Shown: positions 41,252-47,200 of the stretch, piece by piece
How positions within the stretch are numbered: the stretch's first letter is position 1
How the letters are laid out: each line of letters opens with the position of its first letter
Origin: an uncultured Acidobacteriota bacterium
Lineage (GTDB): Bacteria; Acidobacteriota; Vicinamibacteria; Fen-336
Assembly: GCA_963720545.1 (NCBI GenBank)
Contig: OY970399.1
Span: 1,344,001 to 1,408,000, forward strand
Direction: 5' to 3'
Length of the DNA: 64,000 nt
Made by a program: the position numbers

Positions 41252-44200
41252 TGCTGCTCGAGCACTTCGCGCGCCAACTGCCGGTGAAGCGGCGCTTCGC
41301 GCCGTCGGCGGTCGCGGCACTCGGCGCCTACGCCTGGCCCGGCAACGTGCGCGAGCTCGGCTTCGCGGTGGAGCGGATCGGCCTGCTCACCGATCACGAG
41401 GTTGTGGAGGCCTGCGACCTGCCTGCGGAATTCCGCGGCACGGACGACACAATCGCCGGCCGCCCGGAAGCCCTGGCTTCGCCGTCGGCGGCCAACGGCA
41501 ACGGCACCGAGACACCGGTGAAGGACCGCGTGATCAAGGCGCTGGAGCTGACCCGCTGGCACCGCGGCCGCGCCGCCGACGAGCTCGGTGTTTCCGCGCG
41601 CACCCTGCACCGCTGGATGAAGCGGTTCGGCCTGTAGGCGATGGCGGAACAGCGCGGCTTCGAGTTCGATGAAAACGCGGCGAGGCGGCAGCCAGCCGCT
41701 GCGCCGCCGAAACCGGTGCGCACGCGCCGCGCGCTCAAGGTCTGGGAGCTGACCGAAGCCATTCAGGGAGTGCTCGAAACCGATTTCTTCGACGTCTGGG
41801 TCGAAGGCGAGATCTCGAACCTCAAGCTGGCGTCGTCCGGCCACTGGTATTTCTCGCTGAAGGACAACCGCGCCTCGATCCGCGCCGTCGTCTGGAAGAC
41901 CGCCACCCAGCTCATTCGCTTCCGCCCGAAAGACGGCCTGTCGGTGGTGGCGCGCGGTTCGGTGCGCGTCTATGCGGTGCGCGGCGAATACCAGATCTCG
42001 ATCGAGGTGCTGGAGCCGCTCGGCAAAGGCTCGCTGCAGCAGGCCTTCGAGGACCTGAAGGAGCGCCTCGCGAAGGAGGGGCTCTTCGATGCGGCGCGCA
42101 AACGGCCTCTGCCGATGCTGCCCCGCTGCCTCGGCATCATCAGCTCGCCCACCGGTGCCGTCATCTCCGACATCCTGCGCGTGCTGCGCACCCGTTACCG
42201 CAACGTGTCCGTGCAGGTCTATCCCGCGCGCGTGCAGGGGCCCGAGGCGGCCGGCGAGATCGTCGCCGGCATCCGCGCCCTCAATCGCCTCGGCGGGCTC
42301 GACGTCATCATCCTGGCGCGCGGCGGCGGCAGCCTCGAGGACCTGTGGCCCTTCAACAACGAGGGCGTGGCGCGCGCGCTCGCGAACTCGAGGATCCCGA
42401 CCATCTCGGCGGTGGGCCACGAGACCGACGTCACCATCGCCGACTTCGTCGCCGACGTCCGCGCCGCGACGCCAACGGCCGCGGCGCTCACCGTGGTCAA
42501 GGCCAAGGAAGACCTCGCGGCGCACGTGGTGGCGCTGCGCAACCGCGCGGCCGCGGGCCTGCGGCTGCGCCTCGAGCGCGTCTCGAGCCGGGTGCGGGCG
42601 CTCACCTCGCATCGCGTCTTCGAGGCCGAGCGCGGCCGGCTGCGTGCGAAGGCACAGCGCACCGACGAGCTGGTGGCGCGCGCCGCGATGCTCCTGGGCC
42701 GCCGGCGCCAGGTGGCGCGCACTGCCCTTGGCGGCGCTGCGCAGCGTCTCGAGCGGTTCCGCTTCGACCGGCAGGTGGCGCTGCGGCGCGACAGCACGAC
42801 AGCCCTCGACGCGCGCCTCGCGCGGGCAGCGGCGCGCACTCTCGAGGCGCGGCGCGGCAGCCTCGCGCGTCTCGCCGGCAAGCTCGAATCGCTTTCGCCG
42901 GTGGCGGTGCTGGCGCGCGGCTACGCGCTCGTCTGGACCGCGGACGGCACCCGGCTGGTGCGGCGCGCGACGGACGTCGCGGCCGGGGACAGGATCAGGA
43001 TCCGCCTGCACGAGGGCACGCTCGACGCCTCGGTGCTGGCCAAGGAGAACGAATGACCGCAGAAACCCCGCTCAAGTTCGAAGGCGCCCTGGCCGAGCTC
43101 GAACAGATCGTCCAGCGACTCGAGCGCGGCGAGCTGGCCCTCGAGGAATCGCTGGCGCTCTACGAGCGTGGCGTGGCGCTGTCGCGCCTCTGCCACGAGA
43201 AGCTCGAGGAAGCCGAGGGCCGAATCGAATTGCTGCTGAAGGACGGCCGCGGCGACGTCGTCCTCGGCGCCGACGGCAAGCCGAAGACGGCGCCGCTGCC
43301 CGCGGACCCCGCCGACGATGACGACAAGTCCCGCTGAGCTCCTCGCCGGCTATCGCGCGGCGGCGGACGCGGCGCTCGAGGAAGAGCTGCCGGCGGCCAC
43401 CGCCTGGCCGGCCTCGCTGCACGCAGCGATGCGCTACAGCCTGTTCGCCGGCGGCAAGCGCATCCGCCCGGCGCTGGTGTTCGCCGCTGCCGAAAGCGCC
43501 GGCGGCAGCTCCACCCAGCCTCTGGTGCTGCAGTTCGCGTGCGCGGTGGAGATGATCCACACGTACAGCCTGATCCACGACGACCTGCCGGCGATGGACG
43601 ACGACGACCTGCGCCGCGGCAAGCCGACCTGCCACAAGGTGTATGGCGAGGCGCTGGCGATTCTCGCGGGCGACGCGCTCCTGACGCGCGCGTTCGAGGT
43701 GCTGGGGCGCGAGGCGCCGGGCGCCGACGCCACCGCACTGCGCCGGCAGCTCGAAGCGACCGCAGTGCTCGCCTCGGCGTGCGGCACCACCGGGCTCATC
43801 GGCGGCCAGGTGGAGGACCTCGCCGCCGAGGGGTGCCCGGTGAATGCCGGAGAACTGGAACGGATTCATCGCGCCAAGACCGGCGCGCTGCTGCGCGCGT
43901 GCGTGGTGGGCGGCGCCATCCTCGTCGGTGCATCCGAGGACACGCGGACGGCGTTCGATGGCTACAGCCGCGACCTCGGCCTCGCCTTCCAGGTCGTGGA
44001 CGACATCCTCGATGCCACCGAGGACGCCGCGCGGCTCGGCAAGACCGCCGGCAAGGACGCGGCTGCCGACAAGGCGACCTACGTGCGCATCCACGGCCTG
44101 GAAGCGGCGCGCGCCAGCACCCGCACCCTGCTCGCGTCGGCGCTTTACTCTCTGGAGCCGCTCGGCCCGGCTGCCGAGCCGCTGCGCCAGCTCGCGCAGC

Positions 44201-47200
44201 TGGTGGTCGACCGGCGCGAGTGAAAGCTCCGCCGCGGGTGCCGCGCGAGCGCCTCGACCGCGCGCTCGTCGCGCGCGGCCACGCCGAGTCGCGCCAGAAG
44301 GCGCAGGCGCTGATCATGGCCGGCAGCGTGCGGCTCGAGGACGAACGCGTCGCCAAGCCGGGCACCCTGGTTTCCGCCGACACCGCGATCGAAGTGGCGG
44401 CGGCGCCCGGGCACGTGGGCCGCGGCGCGCTCAAGCTCGGCCCCATCCTCGAGCGCTTTGCGATCGACGCGCGCGGGCTCACGGCACTCGACATCGGCGC
44501 CTCCACCGGCGGCTTCACCGAGGTGCTGCTCGCGGCGGGCGCGGCGCGCGTCTACGCGGTCGACGTGGGACGCGGGCAGCTGCACGAGCGCCTGCGCACC
44601 GATCCGCGCGTGCTGGTGCGCGACCGGGTCAATGCGCGGACGCTGTCGGCCGCGGTGATACCCGAGCGCGCGGCCATCGCCACCATCGACGTGTCGTTCA
44701 TCTCGGCCGTCAGGGTGCTCGAGGGAGCCGCGGCGGTGCTGGCCGCAGGAGCGCATGTCGTGTGTCTGGTGAAGCCGCAGTTCGAGGTGGGCCGCGGGCA
44801 AGTCGGCAAGGGCGGGCTCGTCAAGGACGCGCAGCTGCACCGGCAGTGCCTGAGCTCTGTTGCCCGCCGGGCGCAGGAGTTGGGCTACTCTCTTCGGGCG
44901 GCGGCGCCGTCTCCCATAACCGGAAGCGAAGGCAACCGTGAGTTTTTCCTGCACCTCGTCTTCGATTCGGGCAGCCCGGCAGCGCGCGCGGAGGAGATCG
45001 AAAGAATGGCCGATCGGGCGGTGAGCGAATGATCGTCGGCATCATCGCGCGCAGCGACCTGAAGGCGGCGGGGCGGGTGCTGGGCGACCTGATCGCGTTC
45101 CTCAACGCACGCAACGCGCGCTGCATTGTCGAGACCGCCACGGCGCGGCTGCTGGACGGTGCGAAGGACGGCTTCAGCGTCGCCTCCGGCGCCGAGATGG
45201 GCAAGGCAGCCGACGTGCTCGTGGTCTTCGGCGGCGACGGCACGCTGCTGCGTGCGAGCCATCTCATCGCCAGCAACGAGACCTTGGTGCTGGGCGTCAA
45301 CTTCGGCAGCCTCGGCTTCCTCACCGAGATCGCGAGCGACGAACTGGAGGCGACGCTCGCCGACGTGCTCGCCGGCAACGCGCGCTTCGAGAATCGCAGC
45401 ATGCTGAGCGCCGCGATCACCCGCGGTGACAAGGAGAGCGAGCGCCACGACATCCTCAACGACGTGGTGGTCAGCAAGGCGTCGGTCTCGCGCATCATCG
45501 AGTTCGACGTCAGCATCGACCGCATTTTCGTCTCGGCGTTCCGCGCCGACGGCCTCATCATTTCTTCGCCCACCGGTTCGACGGCCTACAACCTCGCTGC
45601 CGGCGGCCCGATCCTGCATCCCGACCTGGCCGCGGTGCTGGTGACGCCCATCTGCCCGCACATGCTCAGCAACCGGCCGCTGGTGGTTGCCGACTCGAGC
45701 CGCATCGAGGTGAAGCTGCGCGACAACCGCCACGTGCCGGTGCACGTCAGTTTCGACGGCGAGAGCGGCGTGCCGCTCGAGACCGGCGACACCGTGGTCG
45801 TGACGCGCAGTGCGCGCGTGCTGCGCCTGGTGCGCTCGCCGCGGCGCGATTACTACGACGTCCTGCGCGCCAAGCTCAAATGGGGCGACTCGGCCGTGCG
45901 TCGTCCTTGATCCCGGAGCCCTGAACTCAGGAAGCATGTCCTTCCGCATCACGATCCGCGGCACCACCGGCGCGCTCCGCCCGCCCAGCCAGCAGCAGCG
46001 CTTCGCCGTGGCTGCGGTGGCCATCGCGGCGGCCGCCTCGCTCTGCACCGCCTCCTATCACCTCGTGCCGACGAGCGCCGGAATCTGGCGCGGCATGGTG
46101 AACCCGCCGGGAGGGGCGCAGCTGGCGCTCGCCGTCATCCTCGGCGTCATCTTTTCGCTCGGCTTCCTGGGACTGCCGTGGCGCTGCAGCCGGTTGGTGC
46201 GCGTTGGCTTCGTGGCGGCGCTGCCGCTGGTGCCGCTCCTGACCGGCTGGGGCCGGGTGCTGCTCTTCTTCCAGGGCCCGGTGCTGCTGATCATTGTCGC
46301 GGCTGCCATCGGCATGATGCTGGTGCGGCGGCGCCAGCGCAACGAGTACGCGCCGGCACCGTTCGAACTGTTCGCGATTGGTTTCGTGCTGTTCCTGGCG
46401 CTCGGCCTGAGGCTGCCCGGTGCCGCCGGCCCGCAAGGCGACGAACCTCACTACCTGCTGATGGCGCGAAGCCTGGTGGCCGACCACGACCTCGACCTGG
46501 CGAACGACTTCGCGCAGCGGCGATACGCGCCCTTCTACGGAGGGGTGCTCGAAGCGCACACTTCGCCGCGCAGCCCGAAGGGGCGCATCTACGCGGTGCA
46601 CGCGCCGGGCCTGCCGGTGCTGCTCGCGCCGGGCTACGCCGCGGCCGGCTACTTCGGCGCGCGCGTGCTGATCGCGTTGCTCGCGGCCGCCACCGCGGCC
46701 CTCACCTACAGGCTGTGCGCCGAGGTGCTCGCCGATCGCGGCCCCGCGCTCGCCCTGTGGCTGGCGCTCGTCTGCACCGCGCCATTCGCGCTCTACGCGA
46801 CCAGCATCTACCCCGAGATGCCGGCGGCGTTCGCCACCGCGGTGTTCCTGCTGACGAGCCGCAAGGATCCCGGACCGCGCGCCCTCGCTGCCGTCGCGGC
46901 CTGCGCCGCACTCCTGCCGTGGATCCACCCCAAGTTCCTGCCGCTCGCCGCCGCGGGCCTGCTGTTCACGGTGGCCCGCCGCGGACCGCGCGCATGGCGC
47001 CGCGCGGCGGTCGCGGCGTTCGCGCTGTCGCTCGCCCTGCTCGCGTTCTTCTTCCGTTCGCACTACGGCTCGCCCTGGCCATCGGCCGCCTATGGTCCCG
47101 GGTACGGCGGCGATGTCTCGCTGCTGCGCGCGCCGCTGGGACTGCTCGGCTTCCTGTTCGATCGCCAGCACGGGTTGCTGTTCCTGAGCCCGGTGTGGCT

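Follow-up and report, generated by a model that had tools for sequence, protein, structure and literature searches.

Complete MEP pathways without DXP synthase (DXS) have been described in several bacteria, and the source of DXP in such organisms is an open question in print, as 172 of the 181 species listed as dxs-less MEP bacteria are unexplained (PMC10663253). Rhodothermus marinus has the MEP pathway without DXS (PMC11730185), and six Acidobacteria including Luteitalea lack dxs according to PMC5462960; absence at the species level is already in print. The bacteria considered here share with these cases a complete MEP pathway without DXS, for which the published route is stated as unknown. 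The published cases, however, are single species, whereas the present sampling covers a class and a phylum and links the loss to one defined site of deletion and to retained PdxJ and ThiG.

A bypass is known in the MTA-isoprenoid shunt of Rhodospirillum rubrum and Rhodopseudomonas palustris, which comprises MtnP, MtnA, a RuBisCO-like protein (RLP) of the DeepYkr type and a cupin methylsulfurylase (PMC5893883). In Escherichia coli, loss of dxs is suppressed by changes in aceE (Q408R, L633R, E636Q/G) or ribB (G108S, D113G), which shows that DXP formation without DXS is possible (PMC3424233). Zinc enzymes are also known to interconvert polyol phosphates and ketose phosphates, namely the arabitol-phosphate dehydrogenases of Enterococcus avium and Bacillus methanolicus (AtlD) and galactitol-1-phosphate 5-dehydrogenase, and PMC6685057 describes a zinc dehydrogenase that oxidises arabitol 1-phosphate to xylulose 5-phosphate. 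Furthermore, acidobacterial hopanoid clusters contain ug1 and ug2, two zinc alcohol dehydrogenases with lengths near 370 and 350 amino acids (PMC5462960, Table S1), to which that paper assigns no function and no link with dxs. The same paper places the second gene, ug2, in all genomes of subdivisions 1 and 3, most of which have dxs, and not in the dxs-less Chloracidobacterium.

The ispA-tlyA site and the extent of dxs loss

The genome studied (G000, an uncultured member of the Vicinamibacteria, Acidobacteriota) is a single 4.09-Mb contig, 94.8% complete, and the window is the 64,000-nucleotide stretch of it that was analysed. A 42-bp repeat in tRNA-like sequence is common to both ends of the contig, and the assembly may therefore lack an element where they join. 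The window holds the following features in the region of the ancestral ymdB-xseA-xseB-ispA-dxs-tlyA-nadK block:

39437..40243, plus strand: ymdB-like phosphodiesterase, which opens the block (PF13277, E 2e-102)
40282..41637, plus strand: sigma-54 response regulator between ymdB and xseA (PF00158, PF00072)
41641..43056, plus strand: xseA, exonuclease VII large subunit (PF02601, E 4e-96)
43053..43337, plus strand: xseB, exonuclease VII small subunit (PF02609, E 4e-21)
43318..44223, plus strand: ispA, short-chain polyprenyl diphosphate synthase (PF00348, E 4e-58)
44220..44223, plus strand: empty dxs slot, the 4-bp overlap (GTGA) of the ispA stop and the tlyA start
44220..45032, plus strand: tlyA, S4 domain and FtsJ-type rRNA methyltransferase (PF01728, PF01479)
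45029..45910, plus strand: nadK, NAD kinase (PF01513, PF20143)

The preliminary description had given the order xseA-xseB-ispA-tlyA-nadK with ispA abutting tlyA and dxs cleanly gone from this site, and the coordinates, Pfam matches and 4-bp overlap confirm this. Since GTGA is common to the ispA stop and the tlyA start, there is no room for dxs and no remnant of it, while ispA-dxs-tlyA is the order in five of 20 dxs-bearing Acidobacteriota loci; in 10 of 20 dxs-bearing loci of the phylum, the distance from dxs to ispA or tlyA is at most about 1.2 kb. Upstream of xseA, ymdB is found in the dxs-bearing loci of G129, G142, G212, G236 and G252. The sigma-54 response regulator was not seen between ymdB and xseA in the dxs-bearing loci examined, and is unrelated to DXP. 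The closest relative of the G000 ispA, 60% identical, is in a record titled Vicinamibacteria.

The extent of the loss was scored with TIGR00204 (cut-off 465.95 bits), for which 10 of 14 named control genomes were over the cut-off, in 121 class genomes (each at least 90% complete, many of them one contig) and in a phylum sample of 161 genomes, 145 from other classes and 16 from the class. None of the 121 class genomes has dxs over the cut-off, the best score being 192 bits and confined to the C-terminal half, and the best match of G000, at 122.8 of 465.95 bits, is an animal-type transketolase. Dxr, on the other hand, is present in 119, PdxJ in 99 and ThiG in 82 of the 121. Thus, dxs was cleanly deleted from the ancestral operon before the class radiated. 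The gap is shared by cultured species.

G000 itself retains dxr together with ispD/E/F/G/H and pdxA, the latter six identified by short motifs only, without a profile; no ThiG was found in it. The class copies of pdxJ at the glmM site share only 36–39% identity with that of G000, which is located elsewhere. By motif and our own reading, G000 also has pdxS/pdxT-like genes, which belong to the B6 route that does not use DXP. From the three consumers kept, one more than had been claimed, we infer that the class still needs DXP. The earlier claims of class-wide absence and of DXP users retained without dxs therefore stand, although the loss is not a mark of the class: the dxr-positive, dxs-negative state occurs in 56 of 161 phylum genomes, including 40 of the 145 from other classes, and records titled Ca. 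Acidiferrales show an empty ispA-tlyA site as well.

A fused RuBisCO-like protein and a paired dehydrogenase

The most likely source of DXP is the salvage of by-products of S-adenosylmethionine, achieved in more than one way. One of these ways is suggested by family f4 of the class, in which all 20 genomes encode an RLP fused to a cupin as one 520-aa protein, 63–78% identical across loci. The RLP half finds its best PDB match in 3qfw (E 6e-60), which we take to be R. palustris RLP1, is nearest to the DeepYkr type and scores below the MtnW and RuBisCO cut-offs; the cupin half matches 3ibm and Rru_A2000 (3jzv). The gene adjoins tsaD in 13 of 20 loci, the arrangement mtnA-tsaD-RLP was found in three of the five wider regions read (G025, G031, G040), and no class II aldolase was found in G001, the sole f4 genome tested. 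By analogy with the MTA-isoprenoid shunt, both signature enzymes of which occur in f4, albeit fused, unlike in the known shunt, the isomerase and cupin would make DXP. As dxs was not found in f4, this shunt would be its only known DXP source.

The preliminary description had proposed one unknown route for the class, without mevalonate genes or a RuBisCO-like shunt. For G000 this is upheld: HMG-CoA reductase was found in none of five genomes (control 5 of 14), PF00016 gave no match in G000, and a profile of 20 f4 proteins reached at best E 0.57 on its six-frame ORFs. For the class it fails, given the f4 fusion. A cupin methylsulfurylase was likewise not found in G000, either with our own cupin profile (best E 0.57) or in a protein search of the phylum sample. 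G000 has the same entry enzymes as the shunt, and the same product is proposed, but it lacks the RLP and the cupin, and the step between would be a two-enzyme redox isomerisation of a deoxy substrate. The genes concerned lie outside the window (genome coordinates):

1421543-1422406, minus strand: MTA phosphorylase (TIGR01694, 320.7 over the cut-off of 274.85)
2756777-2757814, minus strand: mtnA (TIGR00512, over cut-off)
900486-901526, minus strand: DH1, zinc dehydrogenase
899467-900489, minus strand: DH2, zinc dehydrogenase

With matches in 160 of 161 phylum genomes, mtnA is near universal, does not discriminate and was rejected as a marker of the route.

DH1 and DH2 overlap by ATGA and are the sole adjacent pair among the six two-motif zinc dehydrogenases of G000. 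Neither passes an NCBIfam cut-off; among solved structures, those closest to them belong to ketose, polyol and polyol-phosphate dehydrogenases. Among 80 metagenome loci with DH1, DH2 follows directly in 68, and the other 12 end no more than 129 bp past the DH1 stop, which amounts to coupling in 68 of 68 loci with room for both. An Asp after the second Rossmann strand is a signature of NAD. It is present in 78 of 78 DH1 and in none of 43 DH2 (the anchor motif was present in 43 of the 49 rows aligned), and 35 of the 43 DH2 have two basic residues there; by these signatures DH1 is predicted to be NAD-type and DH2 NADP-type. Basic residues beside the catalytic zinc are kept in both (K38, K39 and R49 in DH1; K45, R49 and R294 in DH2). 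The pair differs from the arabitol-phosphate and galactitol-1-phosphate dehydrogenases, which are single catabolic enzymes of PTS operons, in being fixed and of opposite cofactor signatures, and scores far under the galactitol-1-phosphate dehydrogenase cut-off (136 and 92 of 550 bits).

We infer substrates, a direction, an order of action and a sufficient flux for the two enzymes as follows. Radical-SAM enzymes would release 5'-deoxyadenosine, from which MTA phosphorylase would form 5-deoxyribose 1-phosphate and MtnA 5-deoxyribulose 1-phosphate. DH2 would then reduce C2 to give 5-deoxy-D-arabitol 1-phosphate and DH1 would oxidise C4 to yield DXP, with the two different cofactors driving the net isomerisation forward. 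No cupin would be needed, as there is no methylthio group to remove. By our own working, the stereochemistry of arabitol 1-phosphate oxidation carries over to the substrate of the pair, and the same entry chemistry, present in the class as the f4 RLP-cupin, would by analogy count in favour of the scheme. The conversion of 5-deoxyribulose 1-phosphate to DXP by these candidate enzymes, by reduction and then oxidation, is the preferred but tentative assignment, possible rather than probable.

In lower-GC, Terriglobia-like loci the pair lies within ispH-shc-hpnA-hpnG-DH1-DH2-hpnC-hpnD-hpnE, and hpnC is nearby in 22, an hpnA-like gene in 23 and ispH in seven of the 80 loci; in none of the 80 was a methylsulfurylase-type cupin seen. 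The place of the pair between hpnG and hpnC is that of ug1, after hpnG, and ug2, before hpnC (PMC5462960), and it also fits a redox role in hopanoid side-chain synthesis. In contrast to the clustered ug1 and ug2, the G000 pair adjoins queF and proline dehydrogenase, away from mtnA, the MEP genes and hpnCDE, and it is kept in a genome in which no squalene-hopene cyclase motif was found. Stretches of other class genomes totalling about 0.98 Mb did not yield the pair, nor did a synteny search of 20 stretches from 11 class genomes. The nearest Atlas clusters include Nitrospirota and Thermodesulfobacteriota, and cluster look-ups for 20 of 150 DH2 relatives gave only Terriglobus, Ktedonobacterales and Bathyarchaeota. 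Against the scheme, proteins resembling DH2 occur commonly in Verrucomicrobiota and Cyanobacteriota, which are dxs-bearing phyla, so there is no anti-correlation with dxs. In addition, G000 has MtnB, which could compete for the substrate of the pair, and only 18 CxxxCxxC proteins, and flux through the pair may consequently be too low.

Alternative sources of DXP

The main rival, which we consider unlikely, is that DXP arises when pyruvate is coupled with glyceraldehyde 3-phosphate, as a by-product of the action of a thiamine-dependent 2-oxoacid dehydrogenase E1 (of the alpha/beta type in G000, AceE elsewhere), a trickle being enough at slow growth. An E1 is present in all 56 dxr-positive, dxs-negative phylum genomes (alpha/beta in 54, AceE in G126 and G259), of the 20 genomes that lack an alpha/beta E1, 18 keep dxs, related genomes not being independent, and among the four alpha/beta E1s of G000 two are fused and have no E2 alongside. 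According to PMC3424233, single aceE mutations rescue E. coli from dxs loss and trace DXP forms without DXS, but wild-type aceE failed to rescue. All 20 acidobacterial AceE copies read, of 41 over the cut-off, have the wild-type Q408, L633 and E636. AceE is over the cut-off in just 14 of 40 class genomes and one of 12 in the order of G000, and is absent from G000, so that the aceE explanation offered in 2017 fails for this genome and most of its order. The sole E1 common to all class genomes tested is BCKDH-like and adjoins acyl-CoA dehydrogenase in several loci. The fused stand-alone E1 of G000 (genome 257661-259712), found in all 16 class genomes in the phylum sample and in all five small class genomes, was rejected as a dedicated replacement: it is BCKDH-like and common also in dxs-bearing families, and no column separates 15 dxs-negative from 20 dxs-positive copies.

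Somewhat less likely still is a dedicated, unrecognised enzyme in most of the class, for example YjbQ (UPF0047) acting on the MtnA product, with the pair doing something else. In four of 13 class mtnA regions (G018, G024, G039, G096) yjbQ directly follows mtnA-tsaD on the same strand, the slot filled by the RLP-cupin in f4, and two YjbQ-like genes lie elsewhere in G000; however, eight of the 13 regions have no copy, and no chemistry ties YjbQ to DXP. No unknown gene recurs within 1.5 kb of thiG or pdxJ (30 loci each), nor was a recurrent candidate found among the neighbours of thiG, pdxJ and dxr.

Leakage of DXP from an ordinary transketolase or RibB is improbable. Some transketolase type occurs in each of 11 dxs-negative genomes inventoried and RibBA in five of five, and ribB mutants rescue E. 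coli according to PMC3424233, but neither transketolase type is universal in the class, and G108 and D113 are kept in the G000 RibB, so that the RibB suppressor changes, like those of AceE, are absent from the copies read. In the animal-type transketolase of G000, the donor-binding His is conserved along with the other motifs known from the human enzyme; with these ordinary motifs, and not being found in f4, this transketolase was rejected, as was a third transketolase-like gene, seen close to thiG in four genomes, which is patchy and lies among polysaccharide genes. A Glu/Phe residue pair marks transaldolases. Transaldolase/FSA, present in five of five genomes, was also rejected: the short copy read in G012 has this pair and G000 lacks the short type. 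So was a class II aldolase with microcompartment shells beside pdxJ, which corresponds to the ACI microcompartment known from subdivisions 4 and 6; no aldolase was found in the shell locus of G000. Finally, that dxs only seems absent, through incomplete assemblies (most genomes are MAGs, and the G000 end join may lack an element) or divergence below the cut-off, has a negligible chance of being true, given dxs in none against Dxr in 119 of 121 genomes, many of one contig, a best score limited to the C-terminal half, overlapping genes that close the slot, and cultured species with the same gap.

Implications for DXP supply in Acidobacteriota

The salvage of S-adenosylmethionine by-products, the most likely source of DXP, would make family f4 a lineage living on the MTA-isoprenoid shunt alone among known sources. 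It is conceivable, though doubtful, that this abundant class of soil bacteria draws on the ribose part of 5'-deoxyadenosine to make isoprenoids, vitamin B6 and thiazole via an NADPH/NAD+ pair acting as a driven isomerase, without DXS, thiamine, RLP or cupin, and that this entry permitted many losses and later regains of dxs across the Acidobacteriota. The class-wide gap can now be recast as two-gene and one-gene tests in the standard E. coli dxs deletion strain. If true, a natural DXS bypass would explain two genes of acidobacterial hopanoid clusters that have no assigned function, and would let engineers circumvent the first step of terpenoid synthesis, which is feedback-limited and loses carbon. 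It would also connect the waste of radical-SAM enzymes with the making of membranes and vitamins in soil bacteria.

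The dxs site and the reach of the loss

In the window, ymdB, a gene for a sigma-54 regulator, xseA, xseB, ispA, tlyA and nadK follow one another, and the preliminary description had placed the missing gene for DXP synthase (dxs) between ispA and tlyA, where the two genes now overlap.

44220-44223, window: ispA stop and tlyA start, overlapping in GTGA

The order ispA-dxs-tlyA is preserved in 5/20 dxs-positive Acidobacteriota loci (G129, G163, G212, G236 and G252), and dxs lies at most about 1.2 kb from ispA or tlyA in 10/20, which supports that placement and marks the junction as the ancestral dxs slot, closed without a scar. 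The nearest ispA record and the named matches of the dehydrogenases discussed below are titled Vicinamibacteria, and the empty site also occurs in records titled Ca. Acidiferrales. The source genome (G000; one contig of 4.09 Mb, 94.8% complete) yields no DXS, its top TIGR00204 score being 122.8 against the 465.95 bits required. That top match belongs to a transketolase of the animal type, with E 4e-185 against the human enzyme and 1e-27 against DXS. The contig ends (genome 1-42 and 4089331-4089372) have in common a 42-bp repeat in tRNA-like sequence, and their join may lack an element that was once integrated there. In addition, a long membrane protein ORF 3' of nadK (window 45810-49034) carries, by eye in translation, a C-terminal domain like subclass B3 metallo-beta-lactamases, and is either an odd fusion or a read-through.

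None of the 121 sampled genomes of the class, each with a completeness of 90% or more, has dxs over the TIGR00204 cut-off, and three unrelated DXP-using enzymes are retained: the two named previously, Dxr (here 119/121) and PdxJ (here 99/121), and additionally ThiG (82/121). The source genome has no ThiG and carries pdxS/pdxT-like genes, recognized by motif and by reading the sequence, so that Dxr is the firm argument for its DXP need. These genes (genome 2762783-2764353) occur in the same genome as pdxA and a diverged, relocated pdxJ, making two vitamin B6 routes.

The phylum sample comprises 161 genomes at least 95% complete, including three unpublished, dxs-positive ones (G138, G156 and G234); dxs exceeds the cut-off in 94, with one further split copy, and Dxr is matched in 150. 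With a weak partial match in G196 scored as absence, 56 genomes have dxr and lack dxs, namely 16/16 of the class and 40/145 of the others, and the loss therefore stands as class-wide in the sample but not as a hallmark of the class. It is real, wider than the class, and already known at species level, as had been acknowledged (available text of PMC5462960 and PMC10663253). In a quick, unrooted DXS tree, 11 copies from the ancestral site or its vicinity and one off-site copy form one group (SH-aLRT 99) and the remaining 8 off-site copies fall outside it, a pattern which suggests that dxs may have been regained after loss in Acidobacteriota.

A probable RuBisCO-like shunt in one family

PF00016 matches 25/121 class genomes, comprising all 20 members of one family (f4), three with true RuBisCO and two others. 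In f4, a single 520-aa protein joins a RuBisCO-like protein (RLP), whose top PDB match is 3qfw (E 6e-60), to a cupin that matches 3ibm (E 6e-26) and Rru_A2000 (E 3e-16). Its gene adjoins tsaD in 13/20 loci, with the order mtnA-tsaD-RLP in G025, G031 and G040. Such fusions are widespread, with 1417 matches in a set of 8000 candidates. In the rest of the phylum, 4 dxs-negative and 2 dxs-positive genomes have a similar RLP, and 3 dxs-negative genomes of one family have a cupin without RLP. Profiles built from the two f4 halves find no match in the source genome. The earlier statement that no RuBisCO-like shunt is present thus holds for the source genome, which has no f4-type RLP or cupin, but not for f4; nor can a single unknown route be maintained for the class, which, to judge by gene content, does not use one route, the genes of the known shunt being present in about one sixth of the sample.

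Two genomes from other classes that also lack dxs have a transketolase-like gene split in two, its active-site histidines altered, directly upstream of a shunt-type RLP gene (L394 8463-11813 in G125; L395 7491-10468 in G154). Furthermore, a true RuBisCO large subunit (E ~1e-132) is found in three genomes of the source genome's family (L316 in G077, L317 in G029 and L318 in G047), and these three sequences suggest carbon fixation in the class.

A dehydrogenase pair as candidate for the DXP supply

The best candidate for the DXP supply of the source genome is its one adjacent pair of zinc dehydrogenase genes, a tentative assignment that we rate as quite possible and somewhat short of probable.

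900486-901526, genome: DH1, zinc dehydrogenase
899467-900489, genome: DH2, zinc dehydrogenase

The two genes overlap in ATGA behind queF and a proline dehydrogenase gene, and neither exceeds any NCBIfam cut-off. Among the best 80 of at least 114 confirmed metagenome loci of DH1, DH2 follows directly in 68, and the remaining 12 end within 129 bp. In this same set, an Asp ends the second Rossmann strand in 78/78 DH1 rows and 0/43 DH2 rows, and two basic residues occupy the position in 35/43 DH2 rows; Asp is the usual signature of NAD, and basic residues that of NADP. High-GC loci of the set have the context of the source genome, and lower-GC loci, with relatives named Terriglobales, place the pair in an isoprenoid neighbourhood of another class (ispH-shc-hpnA-hpnG-DH1-DH2-hpnC-hpnD-hpnE), where the homologues are ug1 and ug2, genes described as of unknown function in the available text of PMC5462960.

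The source genome has MTA phosphorylase and MtnA, enzymes of a kind that likewise accepts 5'-deoxyadenosine and the ribose phosphate derived from it. In the route that we infer for the pair, from substrate and product to order and flux, 5-deoxy-D-ribulose-1-P would be reduced at C2 to 5-deoxy-D-arabitol-1-P, which would then be oxidised at C4 to 1-deoxy-D-xylulose-5-P (DXP), NADPH in the reduction and NAD+ in the oxidation pulling the pair forward. By the stereochemistry worked out here, the C4 oxidation would be the deoxy twin of the arabitol-phosphate dehydrogenase step from arabitol 1-P to xylulose 5-P (described in the part of PMC6685057 available). One homologue (P0246) carries a fused nucleoside phosphorylase domain.

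Several observations count against the pair. Some 0.98 Mb of stretches from other class genomes yielded no such pair, which leaves the source genome's order as the only one of the class in which it has been seen, and DH2 look-alikes are common in Verrucomicrobiota and Cyanobacteriota, which are dxs-bearing phyla. The source genome has no f4-type cupin and only 18 proteins with a radical-SAM motif, and its MtnB may compete with the route. According to the available text of PMC5462960, every genome of subdivisions 1 and 3 carries ug2, although most of them have dxs, and Chloracidobacterium does not carry it. A hopanoid side-chain role for the pair fits its Terriglobia context, but the source genome has the pair and shows no squalene-hopene cyclase motif; hpnC-hpnD-hpnE-like squalene genes are present (genome 3378272-3381352). 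All of this would accord with a broad and more ancient salvage role that did no more than make the loss of dxs possible, and a low-capacity bypass would accord with the apparent regains.

Thiamine enzymes and further leads

Next after the dehydrogenase pair for the source genome, and on balance unlikely, is DXP formation as a side activity of E1, the thiamine-dependent 2-oxoacid dehydrogenase component. Some E1 is present in 56/56 dxr-positive, dxs-negative genomes and dxs is kept in 18/20 genomes without an alpha/beta E1, which keeps this rival alive, although the pattern is confounded by kinship and lifestyle. AceE is one form of it: suggested for six cultured Acidobacteria without dxs, including Luteitalea (PMC5462960, available text), and again in PMC12583986 (likewise in part), it exceeds the cut-off in 41/80 dxs-negative genomes, 14/40 of the class and 1/12 of the source genome's order; Q408, L633 and E636 are retained in 20/20 copies read, and wild-type aceE did not rescue E. 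coli (PMC3424233, available text). The thiamine enzymes of the source genome are two transketolases, four alpha/beta E1s and one fused oxoglutarate dehydrogenase; in G096, a small genome, PF02779 matches just a single transketolase and a single fused E1, and AceE is absent. The fused E1, nearest to Thermus BCKDH, was rejected as a dedicated replacement: every class genome tested has a copy, but so do many dxs-positive families. No column separates 15 dxs-negative from 20 dxs-positive copies in an E1 alignment to which the unpublished G138 and G234 supply rows, no conclusion depending on the three unpublished genomes alone. The RibB suppressor change was dismissed, both G108 and D113 being retained in the source genome.

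Further observations concern thiamine enzymes. The animal-type transketolase of the source genome (2642597-2644429), a single chain, is far nearer the human than the bacterial enzymes, an ordinary bacterial one lying elsewhere; genes similar to the animal-type enzyme are matched in many class genomes and in none of f4. The 2-oxoglutarate dehydrogenase E1 (genome 3036555-3040283) has 1242 aa, a length that presumably suffices for the fused acyltransferase type of actinobacteria. Four class genomes (L259 16160-18124, L260, L261 and L262) have a third transketolase-like family among polysaccharide genes at a distance of 10-20 kb from thiG; its neighbour is either a HAD phosphatase or a gene resembling CMP-sugar synthetase. 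A distant AceE-like enzyme of 800 aa, adjoining an E2-like gene in G177 (L086) and matched in G009, G021, G033 and G063, covers most of the profile at E 1e-42 to 1e-53, far under the cut-off.

YjbQ (UPF0047) offers a second lead: it directly follows mtnA-tsaD in 4/13 class regions (L379 9231-9644, L386 9518-10030, L381 and L384), the slot of the RLP-cupin gene in f4. Microcompartment shell genes of the ACI type are present (genome 1988745-1990161; L252 7826-9907); in several genomes they lie behind pdxJ together with a class II aldolase, and the source genome's shell locus has no aldolase.

To conclude, the available text of PMC10663253 lists 181 species lacking only Dxs, 172 of them unexplained, with RLP and cupin in five and cupin alone in four. 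In Rhodothermus marinus, the DXP route is called unknown, and extra dxs leads to a higher carotenoid yield (PMC11730185, in the part available). Searches of the literature (subscription papers and preprint supplements lying outside their scope) turned up no class-wide statement of dxs loss and, the pair and dxs not having been queried jointly by name, no dehydrogenase-pair proposal. The question left open in print of how dxs-less bacteria supply DXP becomes testable with a few genes.
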